A stretch of DNA of 64,000 bases. Origin: an uncultured Planctomycetota bacterium. Lineage in GTDB: Bacteria > Planctomycetota > JAJSAM01 > JAKLKS01. The notes below the pieces were generated by a model. It ran no database searches. It had not been told where the DNA came from and saw nothing but the letters and a program-made list of their open reading frames with translations. A program made the translations under genes and the position numbers. Numbering within the stretch: position 1 is the stretch's first letter; each line of letters starts with the position of its first letter. Below are positions 15,911-37,985 of the stretch, piece by piece. The stretch spans positions 74,039-138,038 of the forward strand of contig CAZSIX010000003.1 in assembly GCA_964607145.1 (NCBI GenBank). The letters run 5' to 3'.

Positions 15911-16060
15911 GGGGGCGGAGGATAGCCGCGGCGGGGGGCTCCCTCCACAACGGTCGCGGTGCGGCGTCTGGACCGGGCGGTCCTCGGAGCGTACCATCGG
16001 CCTTGCGGCGGCGGGGAGGGACCACGGGATCCGCGCGGCGCCGCTCCGGGAGGAGGAGAG

Positions 16061-19000
16061 ATGGGCCCTTCGCGCGCGTTCACGGGTCGTCGACGGTTCC
16101 GCACCGCGCTGGGGGCGCCGCTCGCGCTGGCGCTGCTGCTCCCCGCGACCGGCGGGTCCCCGGCGGCGGGCGACCCGGAGGAGCGCGCCACCGGCGACAC
16201 CTTCCGCGGACCGGTGACCGGCGCCGAGTACCGCGCATTCCGCCACGACGGCACGCGGCGCAAGTCGCTGGTGGGTCCCGACGGGACCGTGTTCGAGAAC
16301 GTCGCCGCGGTGATCGCCCACGAGACGTCGGGGCTCTCCGCCGTGGACCGCGTCCTGGACCCGGCGCTCCGCGCCATCGCCGCGGACCCGGCTCGCGCCG
16401 CGGAGGACGTGCGGGTCATCCTCGTCCTGCGGCGCCAGCCGGTCCTCGACGCCGGCGGGGAGGCGCGGCTCCGGTACGGGCCGCTCTTCGCCGCGCACAC
16501 CTCCCGGATGCGGGCCATCCTCGACGCCATCGCCGGTGCCCGCGACCCCGACCCGGGGCGGCGGATGCAGATGGGAGATCGCATCGAGGAGGAGCGGCGG
16601 CTCCTCCCGGCGGAGGACCTGGCGATCCTGGCGACCCTGCGCGCGGAGGTCGCGGACCTCAAGGCGCGATTCCGGCGGGAGGTGCTCGCCGCGGGCCGTC
16701 CGGCGGCGCTCCAGGACCAGGCCCCCGTGGCGGAGCGCGTGGCGGCCATTCCCGGGGCCCGGCTCCTCGGTCGTTCGACGACGCTCAGCACGCTGAGCGC
16801 GGTCATCCCCGCGGGGGCGCTCCGGGATCTCGTCCTCGCGTCGCCGGAACTGGGCGCGGTGCGGCCGGTGCTGGGCTGCGCCGTCGGCCTCGACACGGCG
16901 GTGGGGACGATGGGGGCGTCGTCGTGGACCGGCGCGGGCTACGACGGCACGAGCAGCACGAAGGTCGCCGTGCTGGACACGGGCATGGACTCCGGCCATT
17001 CGGCGTTGAGTTCCGTCGTCTCCGACAGCGCCGTGTTCCTCGCCGCCGGGAAACTGGAGTCGGACTTCAACGACAACTCCACGTCCACCGACGACTTCCA
17101 GTTCCACGGCACGCACGTGGGCGGGATCGTCGCCAGCACGAACTCCACCTACAAGGGGCTCATGCCGGGCGGCAGGGTCATGAACGGGAAGTGCGGGTAC
17201 CAGACGACCTCCGGCGGCGGCGCGCTCCAGGACCCGGACATCATGTCCGCGGGGGACTGGGCCGTGGACAACGGGGCCGACGTGCTGAACTGCTCCTTCG
17301 GCGGGGGAGGGACCACGGACGGCTCCTCGGCGCTGGCGCTGTTCTTCGACGCCATCCCCTACGGCCTCCTCTCCACCGTCGTCGTCGCCGCCGGGAACGC
17401 CGGGTCGGGCAGCGGCACCGTGGGAATCCCCGGCGACGGGTTCAACGTGATCACCGTGGGCAACTTCGACGACAACGCGACGACGACCCACTCCGACAAC
17501 TCGCTCACGTCCTCCAGCAGCCGCGGGCCCCTGGACGACGGCCGGCGGAAGCCGGACATCTCCGCCCCGGGCACGAACATCACGTCGACCTACGCCTTCT
17601 GGGAAGGCGGCAATCCGGACTTCGTGTCCGCCACCGGCACCAGCATGGCGAGCCCCGCCACGGCGGGGGGCTGCGGCCTGCTGGAGGACTTCGCGGCGTC
17701 GTGGGCCCCGGAGACGGTGAAGGCGCTCCTCCTGACGAACCCGAGGAACACCTCGCCCTACCCGACGTCGCCCAACGACAGCTGGGGATACGGCGGCATC
17801 GACCTCGCCGCCGCGTACACGAACCGGGCCGCCGTCGTCGAGGGCACCTTCACGTCCTCCGGGGCGGACCACGTGCTCCTCAAGCCCGGCTCGCTCTCGT
17901 CGGGGAAGCGCGTCACGCTGGCGTGGAACCGCCACGTCGGCCACAACAACGCGTCCGCCCCCACGTCGTACATCGACCTCATCGACCTGGACGTCTACGT
18001 CTACGACGAGGCCGACGGCTCCTACGAGGGCGGGAGCTTCGACAGTCTCGAGAACGTGGAGCAGGTCAAGCTCGGCTCCACGGTGTCGACCCCCGTCATC
18101 AAGGTGGAGCGGTACGACTCCTTCCCGACGGGAGTGACCACCGAGTGGTGGTCCGCGGCGGCGGAGAGTTCCAGCGCCCTGTCCACCGTGGACCCGCCGA
18201 CCCTCGCGTGCTCGTTCACGACGGCGCCGACGTACCTCGCGGCGGGGCAGTCCTTCACGGTCACCGTGCGGGTGGACAACTCCGGCGGCGTCGCGGCCTT
18301 CGCCCCGGAACTCACGCTCGGCACCCCGGCGGGCTACTCCATCACCTCCGGCGCGAACCCCCGCACGCTGGCCCGCATCGCCGCGGGAGGCAACGCCTCG
18401 GCGACCTGGACGGTGACGGCCTCGTCGGGACCGTCGGGCGTGAGGTCCCTGACCGCCGCGGCGACCTCGGACTCCTACGACGAGACCTACGACAGCGCGG
18501 TCACCACGGTGAACCACACGCTGGACGTCACGGCCCCCGCGGGGAGCGTCTCGGTGAACGGAGGCGCGTCCTGGACCTCCACCGTGACCGGCGCCGCCCT
18601 CGCGATCTCCGCCACGGACGACCTCTCCGGCGTGCTGGAGATGCGGGTCGGGAACACGTCGCCGGGCAGCACGTGGGAGGCCTACGCGACGTCGAAGACC
18701 TGGAACCTGGCGTCCGGCGCCGACGGCACGCGCACCGTGGTCCTGGAGTTCCGCGACCGGAGCGGCAACGTGTCCGCGTCGGCGACGGACACCATCGGCG
18801 TGGACACGACGCCGCCGGCGGGGACGGTCTCCGTGCAGGGGGGCGCCGCGGCGGTGAACGGGACGGCGGTGACCCTCGCGCTCTCGGCCTCGGAGACGGT
18901 GACCGGGTCCGGCGTGACGGACATGCGGTTCAGCAACGACGGGACGACCTGGGGCGCATGGACCGGCGTCGCGGCGACCGCGGACTGGAGCCTCGTGGAG

Positions 19001-20854
19001 GGGGAGGGGACGAAGACCGTCCGCGCGCAGTTCCGGGACGCGGTCGGCAACGTCTCGTCCTCGGCGACGGACTCCATCGTGCTGGACCTCACCGCGCCCT
19101 CGGGCTCGGTCGTGGTCAACGGCGACGCGGCGTGGACCTCCACGACGTCCGTCACGCTCTCGACCTCCGCGTCCGACGCCCTCTCCGGCGTGACGGACAT
19201 GCGCTTCAGCAACGACGGCGTCTCGTGGGGGGCCTGGATCCCGTACGCGGCGGCCGCGGGGTGGACCCTCCCGTCGGGGGACGGTTCGCGGACGGTGCAT
19301 GCCCAGTTCCGCGACGGGGCGGGCAACGTGTCCTCCCCGGGCACGGACTCCATCGGTCGCGACGGCACCGCGCCGTCGGGGTCCATCACGCTGGCCGGCG
19401 GGGCCGCCTACGCGACGGGCACGCTCGTGGACGTCGAACTCTCCGCGTCCGACGCCCTGTCGGGAGTCGTGGAGATGCGCTTCCGGAACGGCACCGGCGC
19501 GTGGGGCGCGTGGGCTCCCTACGCGCCGGCGGCGACGCGGACCATCCCCGCGGGCGACGGCGTGAAGGTCGTGGGGGTGGAGTTCCGGGACGCCGCGGGG
19601 AACGTCTCCGCGGAGGCCACGGACTCGGTCATCGTCGACTCCACGCCGCCCGTGGCGGGCGTGCTCATCCTGGGCGGCCGCGCGGCCATCAACACGGCGT
19701 CGGTGACCCTCGACCTCTCGGGCTCCGACGCGCTCTCCGGCGTGGAGGCCTGGCGGGCATCCGACGACGGTGCCACGTGGTCGGGGTGGAGCGCGGCGGT
19801 GGCGACGCTCCCCTGGACGCTCCCCGCCGGGGAGGGGCCCCGCACCGTGTACGTCCAGTGCCGCGACGGCGCCGGGAACGTCTCCGCGGCGGCCAGCGAC
19901 GGGATCCTCGTCGACCTCACCCCGCCCACGGGGACCTTCGTCGTGGAGGGGGACGCGCTCTACGTGATGCCGTGGCAGCCGTTCCGCGCCGATCTCTCCG
20001 CTTCCGACGGCGCGGCCGGCTCCGGTGTCGCGGAGTTCCGCTGGAGCCACGACGGCGGGGGGACGTGGTCCGACTGGGCGGACGTCGGCGGCGGTTCCGT
20101 GGCGATGGCGCGGCCCGCGGGACGCGGGCGCGTGACGGTGACGGGCGCGTTCCGGGACGCCGCCGGGAACGCGTCGACCGCGGCGACGGACGCCGTCCAC
20201 CTCGTGCCGGAGGCGCCCCAGGATCTCGGCGCGGTGAAGACCCTGGCGGGGACGACGGACGAGGGCGGCGACATCGACGCCTACGTGCTCGACCTGCTCC
20301 GCGGCGATCTCCTCACGCTGAAGGTGAAGGCGAAGGGCGCGGCGCGCGGTGCCGACTACACGCTGGAACTCGACGTGTTCGATCCCTCCGGCGCCCGGGT
20401 CGTCACCGGTGCCTGGCCGCCAGGGGCGTCGAAGCCGGGCCTCTCGAAGTTCCCGGCGGGGACCACCGGGCGCCACTGGGTCGTGGTCCGGCCCGCGGGC
20501 GCCGACGCGGACGCGGGCGGGACGTACTCCCTGGGCGTGGCGCCGAAGCAGCAGAAGGCGAGCCTGCGCCCCGCCGGCACGACCGTCGACGATCCGATCC
20601 CCCTGGAGGCCGTCGGCGGCGCCACCCTCTCGGGCACGCTGTCCGGCGCGCCCACCTTCCCCGCGATCCTCACCCCGCCGGGAGGCGGGCCGACGCCCTT
20701 CCCCGTGGTGGGCAAGGGGGGGAAGGCCCGCCTCGGGCCGGGCCTCCTCGACGGCCCCGCGGGCCTCTGGCTGCTCGACGTCTCCGACGGCGGCAGCGTG
20801 ACCTACAAACTGAGTGTCAAGGGGCCGCGGCGCGTGCCCGCGTTCGAGGAGTAG
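16061..20854 (+). CDS. Large secreted subtilisin-family (S8) serine protease with six tandem ~95-aa repeat domains and C-terminal PPC (pre-peptidase C-terminal) domain
   Basis: Catalytic triad motifs VAVLDTGMD, HGTHVGG and GTSMASPATAGG. Signal peptide present. Strong RBS GGAGGAGGAG before ATG 16061. Six repeats follow the pattern ..LSGV.DMRFSNDG..WG.W....A..W.L..G.G..TV..QFRDAAGNVS. PPC-like segment GGDIDAYVLDLLRGDLLTLKVKA. Confidence 0.9.
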   Translation: MGPSRAFTGRRRFRTALGAPLALALLLPATGGSPAAGDPEERATGDTFRGPVTGAEYRAFRHDGTRRKSLVGPDGTVFENVAAVIAHETSGLSAVDRVLDPALRAIAADPARAAEDVRVILVLRRQPVLDAGGEARLRYGPLFAAHTSRMRAILDAIAGARDPDPGRRMQMGDRIEEERRLLPAEDLAILATLRAEVADLKARFRREVLAAGRPAALQDQAPVAERVAAIPGARLLGRSTTLSTLSAVIPAGALRDLVLASPELGAVRPVLGCAVGLDTAVGTMGASSWTGAGYDGTSSTKVAVLDTGMDSGHSALSSVVSDSAVFLAAGKLESDFNDNSTSTDDFQFHGTHVGGIVASTNSTYKGLMPGGRVMNGKCGYQTTSGGGALQDPDIMSAGDWAVDNGADVLNCSFGGGGTTDGSSALALFFDAIPYGLLSTVVVAAGNAGSGSGTVGIPGDGFNVITVGNFDDNATTTHSDNSLTSSSSRGPLDDGRRKPDISAPGTNITSTYAFWEGGNPDFVSATGTSMASPATAGGCGLLEDFAASWAPETVKALLLTNPRNTSPYPTSPNDSWGYGGIDLAAAYTNRAAVVEGTFTSSGADHVLLKPGSLSSGKRVTLAWNRHVGHNNASAPTSYIDLIDLDVYVYDEADGSYEGGSFDSLENVEQVKLGSTVSTPVIKVERYDSFPTGVTTEWWSAAAESSSALSTVDPPTLACSFTTAPTYLAAGQSFTVTVRVDNSGGVAAFAPELTLGTPAGYSITSGANPRTLARIAAGGNASATWTVTASSGPSGVRSLTAAATSDSYDETYDSAVTTVNHTLDVTAPAGSVSVNGGASWTSTVTGAALAISATDDLSGVLEMRVGNTSPGSTWEAYATSKTWNLASGADGTRTVVLEFRDRSGNVSASATDTIGVDTTPPAGTVSVQGGAAAVNGTAVTLALSASETVTGSGVTDMRFSNDGTTWGAWTGVAATADWSLVEGEGTKTVRAQFRDAVGNVSSSATDSIVLDLTAPSGSVVVNGDAAWTSTTSVTLSTSASDALSGVTDMRFSNDGVSWGAWIPYAAAAGWTLPSGDGSRTVHAQFRDGAGNVSSPGTDSIGRDGTAPSGSITLAGGAAYATGTLVDVELSASDALSGVVEMRFRNGTGAWGAWAPYAPAATRTIPAGDGVKVVGVEFRDAAGNVSAEATDSVIVDSTPPVAGVLILGGRAAINTASVTLDLSGSDALSGVEAWRASDDGATWSGWSAAVATLPWTLPAGEGPRTVYVQCRDGAGNVSAAASDGILVDLTPPTGTFVVEGDALYVMPWQPFRADLSASDGAAGSGVAEFRWSHDGGGTWSDWADVGGGSVAMARPAGRGRVTVTGAFRDAAGNASTAATDAVHLVPEAPQDLGAVKTLAGTTDEGGDIDAYVLDLLRGDLLTLKVKAKGAARGADYTLELDVFDPSGARVVTGAWPPGASKPGLSKFPAGTTGRHWVVVRPAGADADAGGTYSLGVAPKQQKASLRPAGTTVDDPIPLEAVGGATLSGTLSGAPTFPAILTPPGGGPTPFPVVGKGGKARLGPGLLDGPAGLWLLDVSDGGSVTYKLSVKGPRRVPAFEE
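18530..20205 (+). repeat. Six tandem ~285-bp coding repeats (protein-level ~95-aa domains) inside the subtilase gene
   Basis: Repeat units begin with (A/P)P(A/S)G(S/T)V.V.G.. and end with ..FRDAAGNVS..ATDSI.VD.T. Read directly from the translated sequence. Confidence 0.7.
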
Positions 20855-20856
20855 CG

Positions 20857-22415
20857 CTACCGACTCACCTCCGCTCGACGGGCACCTCGCGTCCGCGCCG
20901 CCCGTCCGGGTCGCGGACGGTGATCACGCCCTCCCCGCCGGGCGGGAGGAGGTCCGCGGCGGCGGAGGACCGCAGCGTGCGGCGGCCGCGCGTGTCGAGC
21001 AGCGGGACGCCGTCCACCTCGATGCGCGCGCCGCGGGCGGCGCCGCGCACCGCCACGCGGAGGCGGCCGCGCCGGTCGAACTTCGCGCGGCGGATCTTCG
21101 GCGCCGGGGCCGGCGGACCGGCGACGCCCAGCGTGACGCCGAGGAACGCGAACGCCATCTCGTCGGTGGTCGCCTCGCCGTAGCCCACGGGGACCGGCGG
21201 CGATGACGGGTTGTCCGGGTTCCCGGCGGAGTTGTCGAAGACCGCGCGCATGGTGACCCGCGTCCCCGGCGGGATCGGGATCGGCTCCACGGGGAAGTAG
21301 GCGGCCTGCCAGCGGAAGTCCCAATCGTCGATGCGGATGAGGGAGCGCTCCGTCCCGTCGGCGTAGGTCGCGTCGACGCGCATGGACTTGCCGATGAGGT
21401 GCATGTGCGGCGCCACCGTGTGGACCGTGGCGCCGATGAACGCCGGCGCATCGTACGACGCGGTCACCTCGTGGGCCGGGTCTCCGGCGGGGATGAGGAA
21501 GTCCTGGTTCCCCAGAGGCACGATGAACATCTCCTTCGCCGGCGGCGCGTCGTGGAAGTAGAGGCCCACCGACGTCAGATCCTCGTGGACGTCGCCGTCG
21601 TGGGGGTGGTAGTGGACCTGCACGACGATGGTGGCGCCGGCGGGGAGCCGGAGTCCGATGGACGGGTCCAGCGTGAAGGGCCGGTAGCCGGGCGCCCACC
21701 CGCCCAGCGATCCGCTCACGGGGACGCCGGCGCCGCCGAAGCACGTGTAGCCGGGGCCCGGTTCGGCGGCGTCGGCCTCGAGGCTCGCGGTGCCCGTGTC
21801 CACGTAGAGGATCACGTGGTGGACGGTCTCCCGATCGCCCGGGAGGATGTCCACGGAGCGCACCCAGCGATCCTCGGCGAAGTCGGTGGGAACGGGGAAG
21901 CAGCGGTAGGTGTCGGTCCCCGCGGGCGGGGAGTACGGCTCCGCGGGCGTGAGCACGAGATCCGGCGGGCCCAGCGACCACCCGGAGGTGAACGGGCGGC
22001 TCGGGGGCCCGTCCCGCGGGTCCCCCTCGGGGGCGCCCGCCGCGGCCCAGTCCACGAGCGTCGCGATCTCCCCTTCGGAGAGGCGGCGCTCGTCGTGGAA
22101 CACGCCGTAGCCCTGCGCGGGGCGCCAGGGCGGCATCCTGCGCGCCTGCGCCTCCGCCGCGATGTCCGCCGCCCAGGGCGCCACCTGCGCGTGGTCCATC
22201 ATGACGAACGGGCCGATGTCCCCCGGGCGGTGGCAGACCTGGCAGTGCTCCTGGAGGAGGGGCAGCACGTCCCGGTGGAAGGTCGGGGCCCGGCGCGAGC
22301 CGGCGTCGGCGCCGCACACCGCCGCCGCGCCCGCGGCCAGCGCAACGAGCGCCGCCACGGCCCTGCGGGGCGGTGCGGCGGACGGCGACGACGCGTGGTC
22401 GATGGCAACCTCCAG
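20857..22415 (-). CDS. Cytochrome c (CxxCH) domain fused to copper type II ascorbate-dependent (DBH/PHM-like) monooxygenase-like domain, secreted
   Basis: Heme-binding motif HCQVCHRPGD ... RRMPPW. Candidate copper-H site (HHVILY ... VHYHPH) and copper-M site (HMHLIG ... M). Signal peptide RRAVAALVALAAGAAAVCGA. The start is ambiguous: the ORF-track start 22535 overlaps the upstream gene by 74 nt, and an in-frame GTG lies at 22358. Confidence 0.7.
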
Positions 22416-22461
22416 GCGGGCGGGGCCCGCGCGGGGATTGTAGCCGCCGGGCCGCGCCGCG

Positions 22462-25400
22462 TTACCGCCCCGGCGCCAGCGCCTCCCGCAGCGCGCGCAG
22501 TTCCCGGTGCCCCGGCTCCAGCGCCAGGCCCGCATCCACGAGGAGAAGGGCGTCCGCGGTCGCCCCCTGGAGCCGGCGGAGTTCGCCGAACACCCCCAGC
22601 GCGCGGACCGAGTCGGGCCGCAGCGCGAGCACGTCGCGCAGCGTCGCCTCCGCGGCCCCGTGGTCCCGCCGCTGGATGTGGACGAGGGCCCGCTCCACGA
22701 AGGCCGCCTCGCATCGGGGGTTGGCGCGGAGGGCGTCCTCCACGCGCGCCAGCGCCTCGTCCAGCAGCGGGGAACGGGGGTCGTCCCCGGCGGCCGCGCG
22801 CGCCCGGTGCGCGAGGGCCAGCGGCGCCAGCGCCTCGCCCGGTCGCAGGGCCGCCGCCCGCTCCATGTCCTCCAGCGCCGCCTCCGGGAGTCCCGCCGCG
22901 ATGGCCCGCTCCCCGCGCACGAGGAGGGCCTCGGCGAGCGCGTCCTTCGCCCAGCGGAAGGTCACGCCCGCGCGGACGCCGACGTCCAGCGCGCGGATGG
23001 CCTCCGCGCGGACGAGGGCCTCCGACTCCCCCGGCGGGAACGTCCTCGGATCGGGGCCCGTCCGACGGAGCAGATCCGCGGGGAGGTGGGGACGGCAGGC
23101 GGCGAAGGCGTCGGGGTTCGCGAGCAGGTTCCCGGTCACCACGCGCGCGAGCGCCGCGTCCCGCAGCGCCATGAACGCGAGGTAGCCCGCCCGGGCGGTG
23201 GCGCAGGCTTCCGCGCGCTCTGCGAGGCCGGGCACCGCGGGCAGCGGCCCGGGATCGCGGAGGGCCTCCAGGTCCATCCACGTGCAGCGGGGATAGTCGG
23301 GGTCCCCCATGGCGCCGCGGGGCGCGCGGAACTCCAGCGAGAGGTGGGCGTCCGTGTGGAGCCCGGCGCCCGACGGCCCCGCGAACGCGGCCGCCGCCTC
23401 GCGCCCGAGATGCAGCGTCGCCAGCACGTCGGCGGGACCGGTGAGTCCCGCGGCGGCCAGGCCCTCCGCGGCGCGGCCCGCGGGCCACGGGCGCGACGCC
23501 AGTTCGGCGACGATGTCCCGGTCGCCCTCCCGCGTCGCGACGATGCCGTAGTCCGACCACGGCACGAGGTCGAACACGACGGCGTCGGGGAACACTTCGC
23601 GCACTGTGCGCAGCACCAGCCGGAGGTCGTCCAGCGCGAGCCCGTAGGACTGGAGCCAGATGCACACCGTGCCGCCGGGAGCGAGCCGCTCGCGGCAGGC
23701 GCGGAAGTACTCCACGGTGAACAGGTCGCTCACGCCGGCGATCCACGGGTTGGTCGGCTCCGACACGAGCACGTCGTAGGTCCGCTCCGCGTGCTCGATG
23801 TGCGTGCGGCCGTCCTCCAGGAGGACCTGGACGCCGGCCCGGCGCGTCACGTCCCCGTTCACGTGCCGGAAGAACGGCTCCGCCAGGGCCACCTCGGGGG
23901 CGATCTCCGCCACGTCGAGAACGGTGACCCCGTGGCTCTCCACCGCCGCCGCGCTCACGCCCGACGCGAGGCCGACGACCATGGCGCGCGACGGCGAGCC
24001 GTGGAGCAGCGCGGGGAGGTGCCCGAGCAGTTGCTGCGTGGTCATGTCCTGCCCCGTGCTCGCGTCCGCCTTCCCGTTGATGAGGAGGGCGATGTCCCCG
24101 CCCGGTTCGCGCGTCACCGCCACCGTGACGCTCCGCCCCTCCACGTCCAGCAGCCGATCCCACGCCCGGTCGCGGAGCAGGCGGTCCACGGAACGGCCCG
24201 AGGCGGCCGCGCGGGCCGCGTAGGTGGAGGCGTAGACGGCGGCGCCGGAGTGGAGCAGTTCCGGTCTCCACGGGGCCGATCCGGTGGCGACCAGCACGAC
24301 GGCGCCGGCCGCGGCGAGGGCGGCGGGGAGCCCGCGGCGGGGCGGGAGCGAGACGGCGAGCAGGACTCCGGCCAGCGCCAGGTTGATGCCGCACGCCAGC
24401 ACCAGCGTGTCCCGCGTGCCGATGCCGGGCACCAGGAGGAGTCCGCCGCAGAGGGATCCGGCGATGGTGCCCGCGGTGTTCCAGCCGTACACGCGGCCCA
24501 CCGCCCGCGGGGCGCCGCCCGCGTCCCCCGCGACGGCCGCCACGAACACGGGGAACGCGGCCCCCATGGCCAGCGTCGGGAGGAGCGCCGCGGAGAGCGC
24601 CTGCCCGAACTGCCACGTCAGCAGGTCCCCGTAGCGGACGCCCCCGGCGCCGAGGCGCTCGATGACCCGCAGCGGCAGGTCCGCGAGGAACGCCACGGAG
24701 GCCCACGCCGCGAGTCCCACCGCCGCCTGGAGTGCCGCCAGCGCGGGGACCATGGCGCCGGGGCGCACGCGGAGGAGCGGCGTCGCCAGCCCGCCGAGGC
24801 CGAGGCCCAGGATGAAGACCGCGACGACCAGCGTGAACGCATGCACCGACGACCCGAAGGAGAGGATGAGCATGCGCGTCCACGCCATCTGGCAGAGCAT
24901 GGCGGCGAAGCCGGCGGCCCCGGCGCCGACGAGCACGGCCCGGCGCACCCGCGGCGCGAGGGGCGGGGCCGGCGGGGCGGTCTCCGCGACCGGAGGCGCC
25001 TCCGCGGGGGCCGCCGCGGCGGCGGCGAAGCGCGCGTCGAGGACGAGCGCCACCGCCGCCACGAGCAGGTTCGCCCCCACGGCCACGGCGAGGGTCCCCG
25101 GATACCCGAGCGCGGGCAGCAGCAGGAGCCCCGCCGCCAGCGCGCCCCCCGCCGCTCCCACCGTGTTCAGCCCGTAGAGAAGCCCCGTGCCTCCCAGCAC
25201 TCCCGCCGAGGTCCGCACCACGCCGCGCACGAGCACCGGCAGCGTGGCGCCCATGGCGATCGTGGGCGGGAGCAGCAGGAGGCCCGCCAGCGCGAAGCGC
25301 ACGGCGGCGTGGAGGGCGGGGGAGTCGGCGAGCCCGCGGTACGCCGCTCCGAAGACGGGGTGCAGCAGGGAGAGCAGCAGGGGGAAGAGCGCGCAGTAGA

Positions 25401-25674
25401 CCGCGATGCCCGCCTCCAGCAGCGCGTAGGCGCGCAGCGGCCGGCGCGTGCGGGCGGCGAGCCGGCCCCCCAGGCCCGCGCCCAGGGCGAGTCCGCCGAG
25501 GAACGCGGCCACCACGGCGACCACCGCGGGATAGGAGCCGCCGAGCACGCGGGCCAGCTGCCGCGACCAGAGGACCTCGTACACCAGCCCCGCCGCGCCG
25601 GAGACCAGGAACAGCGCCCCCACCGCGACGACGGGAAGCGGCGCCGGGCTCGACCCGTCGGACTCGCGATCCAT
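22462..25674 (-). CDS. Polytopic membrane protein fused to spermidine/spermine synthase-like domain and C-terminal TPR repeats
   Basis: About 12 TM helices in the N-terminal 500 aa. The spermidine-synthase fold region reads VLLINGKADAST ... VSEPTNPWIAGVSDLFTVEYF ... GGTVCIW. C-terminal TPR-like helices. ATG at 25674 is preferred over 25731. Confidence 0.8.
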   Translation of the reverse strand: MDRESDGSSPAPLPVVAVGALFLVSGAAGLVYEVLWSRQLARVLGGSYPAVVAVVAAFLGGLALGAGLGGRLAARTRRPLRAYALLEAGIAVYCALFPLLLSLLHPVFGAAYRGLADSPALHAAVRFALAGLLLLPPTIAMGATLPVLVRGVVRTSAGVLGGTGLLYGLNTVGAAGGALAAGLLLLPALGYPGTLAVAVGANLLVAAVALVLDARFAAAAAAPAEAPPVAETAPPAPPLAPRVRRAVLVGAGAAGFAAMLCQMAWTRMLILSFGSSVHAFTLVVAVFILGLGLGGLATPLLRVRPGAMVPALAALQAAVGLAAWASVAFLADLPLRVIERLGAGGVRYGDLLTWQFGQALSAALLPTLAMGAAFPVFVAAVAGDAGGAPRAVGRVYGWNTAGTIAGSLCGGLLLVPGIGTRDTLVLACGINLALAGVLLAVSLPPRRGLPAALAAAGAVVLVATGSAPWRPELLHSGAAVYASTYAARAAASGRSVDRLLRDRAWDRLLDVEGRSVTVAVTREPGGDIALLINGKADASTGQDMTTQQLLGHLPALLHGSPSRAMVVGLASGVSAAAVESHGVTVLDVAEIAPEVALAEPFFRHVNGDVTRRAGVQVLLEDGRTHIEHAERTYDVLVSEPTNPWIAGVSDLFTVEYFRACRERLAPGGTVCIWLQSYGLALDDLRLVLRTVREVFPDAVVFDLVPWSDYGIVATREGDRDIVAELASRPWPAGRAAEGLAAAGLTGPADVLATLHLGREAAAAFAGPSGAGLHTDAHLSLEFRAPRGAMGDPDYPRCTWMDLEALRDPGPLPAVPGLAERAEACATARAGYLAFMALRDAALARVVTGNLLANPDAFAACRPHLPADLLRRTGPDPRTFPPGESEALVRAEAIRALDVGVRAGVTFRWAKDALAEALLVRGERAIAAGLPEAALEDMERAAALRPGEALAPLALAHRARAAAGDDPRSPLLDEALARVEDALRANPRCEAAFVERALVHIQRRDHGAAEATLRDVLALRPDSVRALGVFGELRRLQGATADALLLVDAGLALEPGHRELRALREALAPGR

Positions 25675-26142
25675 GGAGCGGAGACGGTACCGCGCCCCCG
25701 AAGAGCGGGGGAGGTTCGGCGAGGCGTACACGCGCGGTCGGGTGCCGGCCGAGTCCGGCGGGACACGGCGGCCGTGGAAGCGGAGCCTCGCGAAGAACGG
25801 GGGGGGCCTGCGCGTGCCCCCTTGGGGTAGACTCGGCTTCAGGGACGATCAGCAGTTCCCGGCACTCGAGGGAGGCCGCCGGGGGGAGGAGCGCGTGTGT
25901 GCCTCCAGCACCGCGGAAGAAGTAGCTGCGGCGGTGATGGCTGCGCCTTCGGACGACAACTACGGAGGGACGCGGATGCGACGGAGCGCGGCGTCGGACA
26001 CCAGGTTCGACCCACGACCGCCGGGCGCGTGCAAGAGTCCGCCCCATCCTCTCGTGCCGACTTGGATCTGGTGGGGCGGGGCACTCGTGCTGGCGGCCAC
26101 TCCGGGCCCTGGATCTTCGGCACTGCGAACGACAAGGTCTTC

Positions 26143-35217: not shown

Positions 35218-35718
35218 ATGGCGACCGTCACGCTGAAGGGCAATCCCTGCAACCTCGCCGGCACGATGCCGGCGGTGGGAGCCGCCGCGCCGGCCTTCAC
35301 CCTCGTGAAGCAGGATCTCTCCGCCGTCACGGAGAAGGACCTCGCCGGCCGGACGACCATCCTCGTCACCGTGCCGAGCCTCGACACGCCGGTGTGCCAG
35401 ACGGAGACGCGCAAGTTCAACGAGCGCGCCGCGGCGCTGCCGAACGTGCAGGTGCTCGTGGCCTCCGCCGACCTCCCCTTCGCCATCAAGCGCTTCTGCG
35501 CCGCCGAGGGCATCGACCGGGTGCACGGGGTCTCCGACGTCCGCGACCGCGGCTTCGGCGCCCGCTGGGGCGTCGCCATCGCCGACGGCCCGCTCCAGGG
35601 CATCACGGCGCGCGCCGTGTTCGTCGTCGGGCCGGACGGCAAGGTGCGGCACGCGCAGCTCGTCCCCGAGATCGCGCAGGAGCCGGACTACGAGGCGGTG
35701 CTCAAGGCCGTGTCGTAG
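35218..35718 (+). CDS. tpx: Thiol peroxidase Tpx (atypical 2-Cys peroxiredoxin)
   Basis: Motifs [10 protein letters not shown] (peroxidatic Cys) and FCAAEG (resolving Cys). RBS AAGGAG. 166 aa. Confidence 0.9.
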
Positions 35719-35726
35719 GGGTTGCC

Positions 35727-37985
35727 GTGGACGTCGCCGTCATCGGGGGGGGGCCGGCGGGGCTGTACTTCTCCCTCCTGATGAGGAAGGCGTTCCCGGA
35801 GTCCCGGATCCGGGTGCTCGAGCGCAACCGGCCGGACGACACGTTCGGCTGGGGGGTCGTCTTCTCGCGCGAGACGCTGGACGCGTTCGACGCCGCCGAC
35901 CGGGAGTCCTTCGCCGCCATCCGCGCGTCCTTCCGCTACTGGGATGACATCGAGACGCACCGGGGCGGCGAGTGCGTGGTGTCGCGGGGCCACGGCTTCT
36001 CCGGACTCTCCCGCCGCCGGCTCCTGAACATCCTCCACGACCGGTGCCGGGACCTGGGCGTGTCGCTGGAGTTCGAACGCGAGGTCGCCGGGGTCGGGGA
36101 CTTCCCGGAGGCCGACCTGATCGTCGCCGCGGACGGCGTGAACAGCGCCGTCCGGACGGCCATGGCGGACCGGTTCCGGCCCACGCTCCGCTGGGGCTCC
36201 TGCCGCTTCACCTGGCTCGGCACGACGCTCCCGCTCCGCGCGTTCACCTTCCACTTCAAGGAGAACGCGCACGGGCTCTTCCGCGTCCACGCGTACCCGT
36301 TCGAGGAGGGGACGAGCACGTGGATCGTCGAGTGCCGCGAGGAGACCTGGCGCCGCGCCGGGCTCGACGGGGCGACGGAGGAGGACACGGTCGCCTACTG
36401 CGAGGACCTGTTCCGCCCGGAACTGGCGGGGCACCGCCTGCTCACGAACCGCTCCCTCTGGCGGTCCTTCCCCACGGTCTCCTGCGAGGCCTGGAGCGCG
36501 GGCAATGTGGTGCTCCTGGGCGACGCCGTCCACACGGCGCACTTCTCCATCGGCAGCGGGACGAAACTCGCCATGGAGGACGCCATCACGCTGACGGAGG
36601 CGTTCCGCTCCATGGGGACGGCGGACGTGCCGCGCGTGCTCCGCACGTGGGAGGAGCGGAGGCGACCGGAGGTCATCCGCCTCCAGCGCGCCGCGAAGAC
36701 GAGCCTCCGCTGGTTCGAGGAGACGGAGCGGTGGATGAAGCAGCCGCCCCTCCAGTTCTCCTTCAACCTGATGACCCGGTCCAAGCGCATCACCTACGAC
36801 AACCTGCGGGAGCGGGACCCGGCGCTGGTGGCGCGCGTCACCGACGCCTGGGGGGAGCGCGAGGGGGCGCCGAAGGGGAGGGACGGGCGGTACGCGCCGC
36901 CCATGTTCGCGCCGTTCCGGCTCCGCGGCATGGAACTCCGCAATCGCATCGTGGTCAGCCCCATGTGCCAGTACTCGGCGGTGGACGGCGTCCCCGGCGA
37001 GTGGCACCTCGTACACCTCGGGTCCCGCGCGGTGGGGGGGGCGGGCCTGGTGATGACGGAGATGACCGACGTCCTCCCCGACGGGCGCATCTCCACGGGC
37101 TGCACGGGGATGTGGAACGAAGCGCAGGAGGCGGCGTGGCGGCGGATCGTGGAGTTCGTCCACGGCCACTCCACGGCGCGCATCGGGCTGCAGCTCGCCC
37201 ACGCGGGGCGGCGGGGATCCTGCGTCCACCCGTGGGAGGGGCTCGACCGGCCGCTGCTCCCTGCGGACGGCGGGTGGGAGACCCTGGGGCCCTCGGCGCT
37301 GGCGTTCGCCCCCGGGTTTCCGGCGCCGCGGGAGATGGACCGCGCGGACATGGACCGGGTCCGGGACGCCTTCGTCGCCTCCACGCGGCGGGCGCTGGCG
37401 GCGGGATTCGACCTCGTGGAACTGCACATGGCCCACGGGTACCTGCTCTCCACGTTCCTCTCGCCGCTCACGAACCGGCGCACGGACGGCTACGGCGGGA
37501 CGCTGGAGAACCGGCTCCGCTGGCCGCTGGAGGTGCTGGCGGCGGTGCGTGCCGCCTGGCCCGACGACCGGCCGCTGGCGGTGCGCATCACGGCCAGCGA
37601 CTGGGTCGAGGAGGGCGGGCTCACGGAGGCCGACGCCGTGGGGATCTCGCGCGCGCTGGCGGCGGCGGGCTGCGACGTCGTGGACGTCTCCAGCGGGGGC
37701 AACTCCACCGAGTCGCGGCCCGACTTCGGCCGCATGTTCCAGGTCCCCTTCGCCGACCGGATCCGGCACGAGGTGGGCGTCCCCGTGATGGCCGTGGGGG
37801 CGATCCTCGGGTGGGACCACGCCAACACCGTCCTCGCCGCCGGGCGCGCCGACCTCGTCGCCATGGCGCGGCCCCACCTCGCCGATCCCTACCTCACCCT
37901 CCACGCCGCCGCCGCGTACGGCTGGACCGGCCAGGAGTGGCCCGCCCCCTACCTCCTCGGCCGCCCCGCCCCCCCCCGCCCCTGA
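35727..37985 (+). CDS. Bifunctional FAD-dependent aromatic hydroxylase (salicylyl-CoA 5-hydroxylase-like) / Old Yellow Enzyme-family NADH:flavin oxidoreductase
   Basis: N-terminal half has the FAD fingerprints [11 protein letters not shown] and DG.NS ... [23 protein letters not shown]-terminal half has the OYE TIM-barrel motifs ([37 protein letters not shown]). GTG at 35727 lies 8 nt after the tpx stop. Confidence 0.85.

Follow-up and report, generated by a model that had tools for sequence, protein, structure and literature searches.

Which reductant a bacterial copper monooxygenase would use when a c-type cytochrome is encoded in the same polypeptide is the question raised by a gene on the reverse strand of a contig from an uncultured Planctomycetota bacterium (assembly GCA_964607145.1, contig CAZSIX010000003.1). 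The textbook non-coupled two-copper monooxygenases, PHM and DBH, are eukaryotic and secretory in the forms that have been studied, and use ascorbate; in animals, enzymes with such a core serve in the production of peptide hormones and noradrenaline. The gene considered here lies at 20865..22358 (−) of the 64,000-nucleotide stretch that we analyzed (positions 74,039 to 138,038 of the contig, hereafter the window), and an initial reading of the DNA, made from the sequence alone, had described it as a cytochrome c heme motif fused to a PHM-like copper core, with an unclear start. We propose, with moderate confidence, that the product is an exported heme c-PHM/DBH-type two-copper monooxygenase in which the fused cytochrome donates electrons to the CuH site in place of ascorbate.

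The Gene and Its Product

The gene ends in a TGA stop codon at 20867-20865 on the minus strand, and its low coordinate, as in the list of open reading frames, is therefore 20865; the value of 20857 given previously is the end of an open reading frame in a different frame. Counting from the GTG codon at 22358, which is the start in an identical protein already in NCBI (P0001, 100% identity over 497 aa) and which is residue 1 in our numbering, the coding sequence comprises 497 codons plus the stop (20865..22358, −), while the longest version of the reading frame begins at ATG 22535 and spans 556 aa. The GC fractions at codon positions 1/2/3 (0.75/0.55/0.97) are typical of coding DNA, in a window of 74.4% GC. 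All of the motifs quoted in the sequence-only reading (HCQVCH, RRMPPW, VHHVILY, QVHYHPH, PHMHLIG, and TTDEM) are present in the translation, which is organized in four parts in the order signal peptide, mono-heme cytochrome c, PHM/DBH-type core, and IPT/TIG domain. An AlphaFold 2 (AF2) model built on an alignment is confident (predicted local distance difference test, pLDDT, 89.8; predicted template modeling score, pTM, 0.85). The C-terminal domain (approximately residues 420-497; 20868..21101, −) has the Ig-like beta-sandwich fold of the IPT/TIG type.

A PHM/DBH-Type Core with Complete Copper Ligand Sets

Searches with a family profile built from 36 relatives recover rat PHM (E=4e-11) and human DBH (E=4e-7), and the alignments place the His motifs of the family on the copper ligands; residue conservation, given below for each ligand, was counted over 120 aligned relatives. 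The N-terminal beta-sandwich subdomain of the core, which would house the CuH site, covers approximately residues 128-268 (21555..21977, −) according to the profile alignment with PHM and to fold matches. Here, VHH (compare PHM VHHMLLF) places H180 and H181 (21816..21821, −; conserved in 120/120 and 119/120 relatives, respectively) on the PHM CuH ligands H107 and H108, and QVHY (compare PHM LQVHYG) places H249 (21612..21614, −; 120/120) on H172. The C-terminal beta-sandwich subdomain, assigned in the same way to approximately residues 270-412 (21123..21551, −), would house the CuM site, with the HMH motif H318-M-H320 (21399..21407, −; PHMHLLG against PHM VHTHHLG; 120/120) on ligands H242 and H244. 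A sub-profile of this subdomain aligns TTDEM with PHM SSDEM, such that M401 (21156..21158, −; 120/120) corresponds to M314, and also aligns WQ..Y with PHM Q272..Y275, two residues that are preserved as Q351 and Y354 and are invariant in the 120 relatives.

The alignment with PHM and DBH that had been suggested as a check on the sequence-only reading thus puts the His and Met motifs on the CuH and CuM ligands, and the structural part of that reading, a c-type heme module joined to a PHM/DBH-like core with complete CuH and CuM ligand sets, is strongly supported. The core has the two-subdomain beta-sandwich fold of the type II copper monooxygenases, and it belongs to the PHM/DBH superfamily by both its fold and its ligands.

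The target has all six copper ligands, as well as Q272 and Y275, in common with PHM (the rat PAM core; PDB 1PHM, 1OPM, and 1SDW), although the sequence identity is only ~20%. In contrast to PHM, which uses ascorbate as its reductant, the target is bacterial, is predicted to be exported, has a heme c domain at its N-terminus and an IPT/TIG domain at its C-terminus, and shows an additional conserved loop, NSxxNPxNPNxPPxPV, ahead of the CuM Met; unlike PAM, it has no PAL partner domain. The same CuH and CuM ligand sets are found in DBH (PDB 4ZEL), tyramine beta-monooxygenase (TBM), and the MOXD proteins, but enzymes of the DBH type begin with a DOMON and a dimerization domain, whereas in the target a c-type cytochrome stands in the DOMON position. 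As no match to the DOMON domain was found in the target or in the 36 relatives, the protein is not of the DBH/TBM/MOXD type; its N-terminal domain is instead a helical CxxCH cytochrome.

We also note that 82 of the 120 relatives have Cys at both positions 339 and 402 (21341-21343 and 21153-21155), the latter directly following the CuM Met, which suggests a Cys339-Cys402 disulfide beside this Met in most relatives. The corresponding residues of the target are Ser and Ala, its closest orthologs also lack both Cys, and only one Cys of the pair is present in 21 relatives, so that the co-variation is partial.

A Heme c Domain Strictly Paired with the Core

Immediately N-terminal to the CuH (electron-entry) subdomain lies a helical, mono-heme c-type cytochrome domain of approximately residues 24-112 (22023..22289, −), with AF2 helices at residues 27-38, 56-71, and 95-106. 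The target sequence gives sub-threshold matches to the Pfam families Cytochrome_CBB3 (15.7 bits, below the Pfam cut-off of 27) and Haem_bd, while 30 of the 36 relatives match PF13442 at E<=1e-3. Both the heme-attachment motif CQVCH (C39, C42, and H43; 22230..22244, −) and the MPPW motif (22125..22136, −) are invariant in the 120 relatives, and by analogy with class I cytochrome c chemistry, M75 (22134-22136) is probably the sixth (axial) heme ligand. The heme motif could have turned out to lie in a region that homologs lack, as the sequence-only reading had cautioned, but its invariance shows otherwise.

The heme module and the copper core co-occur strictly across the family: CxxCH followed by MPPW is present in 121 of the 150 nearest representatives of clusters at 50% identity, the remainder being fragments or truncated gene calls. 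The segment that links the cytochrome to the CuH subdomain is highly conserved (W104, G108, A109, P110, G112, P118, W127, G130, P132, and D133), which points to a fixed interface and not to a flexible tether. Heme-less forms of the core were considered and discarded, as the apparent cases are either gene calls beginning at the Met of MPPW or fragments at contig edges. The public gene predictions for P0148, P0166, P0186, and P0256, for example, begin exactly at this Met; with the CxxCH half of the heme domain lost from the gene call, these proteins appear heme-less.

Heme attachment to c-type cytochromes requires export. The N-terminus of the target, MAALVALAAGAAAVCGADAGS (22296..22358, −), reads as a signal-peptide-like hydrophobic stretch, and a hydrophobic N-terminal stretch precedes a conserved PTF motif in all 36 aligned relatives; in the AF2 model, confidence is low at residues 10-19. 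We infer that the protein is exported, to the periplasm or the cell surface, and that its heme would be attached in the periplasm.

Family Size and Domain Architectures

When the copper core alone served as the query against 1.84 billion representatives at 50% identity, 9,616 clusters were recovered at 1e-3, 5,779 at 1e-10, and 1,669 at 1e-30. More than 6,200 relatives of the target are present in a protein collection clustered at 90%, and at least 581 loci were confirmed in species-representative genomes. The phyla among the loci listed include Acidobacteriota (Thermoanaerobaculia, Blastocatellia, and Bryobacterales), Rokubacteria/Methylomirabilota, Armatimonadota, Planctomycetota, Poribacteria, Verrucomicrobiota, and Hydrogenedentes, and the family is found in cultured Planctomycetota, with two copies in Tundrisphaera sp. 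TA3 and a member in T. lichenicola P12. Among the matches listed, the best species-genome match to the target has 53% identity.

Four architectures recur. The simplest comprises signal peptide, cytochrome c, and core (~420 aa), and the second adds an IPT/TIG tail to these (500-750 aa). The target belongs to this second group, and within it to a sub-clade of high GC content and ~500 aa that has the IPT/TIG tail and lacks the Cys339/Cys402 pair. The third places a Redoxin/AhpC-TSA domain ahead of cytochrome c and core (~620 aa), sometimes with tetratricopeptide repeats (TPRs), and the fourth is a tandem duplication of the whole cytochrome-plus-core unit (~870 aa). In the duplicated proteins P0010, P0011, and P0013, CxxCH, MPPW, and the His motifs are intact in each of the two copies. 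The branch with the thioredoxin-fold Redoxin/AhpC-TSA domain is large (for example P0152, P0139, P0145, P0215, and P0228), and in some of its members TPRs, an Mpo1-like domain, or a DUF1559 domain are also present.

Public relatives from Thermoanaerobaculia, Blastocatellia, metagenome-assembled Planctomycetota genomes, and Tundrisphaera share the family and architecture of the target at 40-63% identity. They carry automatic names such as "ascorbate-dependent monooxygenase", "mono/diheme cytochrome c family protein", "monooxygenase, partial", or "hypothetical". The fusion of heme domain and core is not unusual, but rather the norm in a family with thousands of members, to which automatic names have already been given. 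In the full-text literature, with subscription journals outside the coverage, we found no paper, descriptive or experimental, on a bacterial cytochrome c-PHM/DBH fusion, and in a 2020 review of metalloproteomes, PHM and DBM appear solely among the cuproproteins of eukaryotes (PMC7435645).

The Fused Heme as a Candidate Electron Donor

In the catalytic scheme that we propose, a periplasmic carrier, such as a soluble cytochrome of the respiratory chain, would reduce the His/Met-ligated heme c, and the heme would then supply the neighboring CuH subdomain with single electrons, one after another. From CuH, these would pass to CuM, where the enzyme would activate O2 and hydroxylate an extracytoplasmic substrate at a C-H bond. 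Replacement of ascorbate by the heme is plausible from the order and conservation of the domains, and we know of no bacteria of these phyla that make ascorbate. The coupling of the two modules finds further support in the ~870-aa relatives, in which cytochrome and core have been duplicated as one unit. PHM chemistry takes two electrons per turnover, and a single heme supplies one; the description of the enzyme as self-sufficient in the sequence-only reading was hence too strong, since the heme in turn depends on a reductant from outside.

Other copper enzymes offer partial parallels. The cytochrome domain of cellobiose dehydrogenase is a one-electron donor to the secreted lytic polysaccharide monooxygenases (LPMOs), which are also copper monooxygenases, and there replaces small reductants such as ascorbate. 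In that pair, unlike the target, donor and acceptor are separate proteins, the heme is of type b in a different fold, and the copper site is a mononuclear histidine brace. A mechanistic parallel is offered by the copper nitrite reductases (CuNiRs) with tethered cytochrome c domains, which act as built-in donors to copper (PMC6038957, PMC13324648). In Ralstonia pickettii (RpNiR), the periplasmic copper enzyme carries a fused mono-heme cytochrome c, which passes single electrons to the copper entry site (PMC6038957, PMC6278305, PMC13324648). RpNiR differs from the target in its unrelated copper fold (a cupredoxin trimer) and chemistry (nitrite reduction), in having its cytochrome at the C-terminus rather than the N-terminus, and in that its electron transfer has been studied experimentally, whereas that of the target is inferred.

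Several observations weigh against a heme-driven monooxygenase. The target sequence on its own is below all Pfam cut-offs, scoring 19.9 against 30 for Cu2_monooxygen (PF01082) and 14.7 against 23 for Cu2_monoox_C (PF03712). These two models are matched at E<=1e-3 by 26 and 31, respectively, of the 36 relatives, and the family is a divergent branch at the edge of both; no NCBIfam model matches the target or its named relatives, and a sequence search of the PDB with the target protein gave no match. The residues with which PHM binds its peptide substrate, R240, N316, and Y318, are also replaced, by Ala316, Phe403, and Phe405 in the target. Across the 120 relatives, the position of R240 is mostly Ala (A 91, T 18, S 5), that of N316 is variable and hydrophobic (Leu/Ile/Phe; L 53, I 48), and that of Y318 is Phe in 119. 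Because the substrate-binding residues are not kept, the protein is not a PHM orthologue and should not be called a peptidylglycine hydroxylase; its substrate, judging from these replacements, is probably not a peptide with a C-terminal glycine, and the CuM chemistry could differ from that of PHM. Furthermore, the Redoxin/AhpC-TSA domain that precedes the cytochrome in many relatives hints at a thiol or peroxide chemistry that a simple donor model leaves unexplained. Finally, all-against-all clustering of the open reading frames across 83 loci revealed no conserved operon partner, whether a reductase or a substrate-related gene.

Some of these features could be accommodated by an oxidase or peroxide-handling protein. 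Electrons from periplasmic cytochromes would then travel through heme c to the coppers for the reduction of O2 or H2O2, whether to dispose of electrons or to defend against oxidative stress, with no hydroxylation of an organic substrate. The major branch with an N-terminal redoxin domain, the lack of a conserved substrate-related neighbor, and the loss of the PHM substrate-binding residues would all be in keeping with this, but the target itself has no redoxin domain, and the relatives invariably retain Q351, Y354, and every CuM ligand, among them the Met that marks the O2-activating hydroxylases of this family. To our knowledge, no member of the PHM fold is a dedicated oxidase, and we regard such a function as unlikely. 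Less likely again is a flow of electrons in the reverse direction, where the substrate would be oxidized at the coppers and electrons would leave through heme c to the respiratory chain, as in a copper dehydrogenase. Direction cannot be read from the fusion itself, fused c-type cytochromes frequently serve periplasmic dehydrogenases as electron exits, and the gene stands alone, with no dedicated reductase. The ligand sets, however, are those of the O2-activating PHM and DBH, in which both coppers are reduced from outside before O2 reacts, and we know of no dehydrogenase with the PHM fold.

A third possibility, which we likewise consider improbable, is that the heme domain lies outside the catalytic path, with a structural, docking, or ligand- or redox-sensing role, and that, as in the eukaryotic enzymes, the core receives its electrons from a small, diffusible reductant. 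The name "ascorbate-dependent monooxygenase" used in databases would fit this, being transferred from those enzymes, and tethered domains in CuNiRs can have roles beyond simple donation (PMC13324648, PMC7201279). Such a role sits poorly with the strict co-occurrence of heme module and core, with the conserved segment between them, and with their duplication as one unit, while the His/Met six-coordinate motif appears typical of electron carriers and not of sensors. Taken together, donation of electrons by the heme to a two-copper monooxygenase accounts better than any of the three alternatives for the invariant O2-activating CuM set and for the strict pairing of the modules.

The Translation Start

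Initiation had been described as unclear, and this ambiguity is real, with four in-frame candidates: ATG 22535, CTG 22415, ATC 22403, and GTG 22358, the last of which had been overlooked. The ATG of the longest open reading frame (22533..22535, −) overlaps the upstream gene (stop codon 22464-22462) by 74 nt, exactly as the sequence-only reading had reported. In the overlap, the GC fractions at codon positions 1/2/3 are coding-like in the frame of the upstream gene (1.0/0.58/0.92) and not in the frame of this gene (0.56/0.88/0.96), and the extension of 59 residues that this ATG would add has no counterpart among homologs. For these three reasons, it is an unlikely start, and the least likely among ATG 22535, ATC 22403, and GTG 22358; as an arbiter between start codons, composition was set aside, as the stretches are too short to decide.

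A start at GTG 22358, as in the public record, avoids any overlap with the upstream gene, and would leave the signal peptide without a basic n-region. The closest orthologs start with an ATG approximately six residues ahead of a basic R/K-S-R n-region, which aligns with the RR just upstream of GTG 22358, and the family profile alignment begins at R58 of the long reading frame. A possible N-terminal extension of 15 codons from ATC 22403 (22359..22403, −) would add such a basic n-region (..PPRR) to the signal peptide. The GGAGG that had been placed near 22420 is located at 22413-22409 (22409..22413, −), 5 nt before this in-frame ATC, and is a possible ribosome-binding site, although a weak pointer: GGAGG occurs 631 times on the two strands of the window (4.9 per kb per strand), and the pattern CTGGAGG-N5-ATC is also present within another gene. 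GGAGG is too common in DNA of 74% GC to be diagnostic for start sites. Elsewhere in the window, the ATG starts at 16061, 49112, 53563, and 59111 have a strong GGAGG or AGGAG 4-8 nt upstream.

On balance, and as a rough judgment, we regard GTG 22358 as the leading candidate, if one that falls slightly short of an even chance, with the non-canonical ATC 22403 a possible but doubtful alternative; ATG 22535 is improbable, and some other codon more improbable still. No promoter-like or terminator-like consensus site was found within 20600-22800.

Gene Neighborhood

The target converges on a gene encoding a 1631-aa protein with a Peptidase_S8 domain (15959..20854, +), with the two stop codons 10 nt apart; this protein also has an NPCBM_assoc domain and a long run of ~95-aa Ig-like repeats with the motif "SGV..MRFSNDG..WG.W". 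A large S8 protease is likewise the convergent neighbor of the relative at locus L003, and we considered this protease as a conserved partner, since it adjoins the gene in the window, at L003, and at L005. It was rejected, as it does so in only ~5 of 83 loci, and it is absent beside the three closest orthologs, the neighbors of which are quite different. Upstream lies a gene (22462..25731, −) for a 1089-aa protein, the N-terminal half of which is long and hydrophobic and is followed by a Spermine_synth domain (residues 565-717) and, at the C-terminus, by TPRs; this gene adjoins the family in 0 of 82 other loci.

The recurring neighbors in the 83 loci are generic (ABC ATPase, histidine kinases, MacB/FtsX, extracytoplasmic function (ECF) sigma factor, and amidohydrolase), and come mostly from closely related Thermoanaerobaculia; the gene thus behaves as a stand-alone unit. 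An ECF-type sigma-70 gene lies within ~1-2 kb of the family member at nine loci from several phyla (L042, L054, L059, L061, L067, L078, L079, L081, and L082), and none is present in the window, which also holds no second copy of the family. The other genes of the window are unrelated, and include a Ser/Thr kinase, an ABC-F ATPase, an SBBP beta-propeller protein, an aminotransferase, and, at 35394-37985 (+), an 863-aa fusion of FAD_binding_3 (of the aromatic-ring hydroxylase type) with Oxidored_FMN (old yellow enzyme; OYE).

Implications

What is new here is at the level of the family and not of the locus: the target is an ordinary member, already public under an automatic name, and its value lies in the family that it represents. 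Whether the thousands of bacterial cytochrome c-PHM-like fusions constitute a functional class of copper hydroxylases driven by the respiratory chain, in which heme c replaces ascorbate and the extracytoplasmic substrate is not a C-terminal glycine, is a proposition that we regard as evenly balanced. For PHM and DBH, it is a matter of debate by which route CuH receives its electrons and how these then traverse the solvent-filled gap to CuM. In a bacterial branch with fused heme c, the heme spectrum would report on the entry of electrons, which could be started electrochemically or with light, and if the proposition is true, the family would offer a natural system for triggering electron injection into CuH and following it optically through the heme. 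Bacterial expression may also give easier access to the PHM fold. More broadly, PHM/DBH chemistry, which has been listed as exclusive to eukaryotes (PMC7435645), would in that case be widely distributed among bacteria of soils and waters, and the family would amount to a large pool of candidate copper oxygenases (the 9,616 clusters at 50% identity), the substrates of which could matter for the turnover of organic matter.

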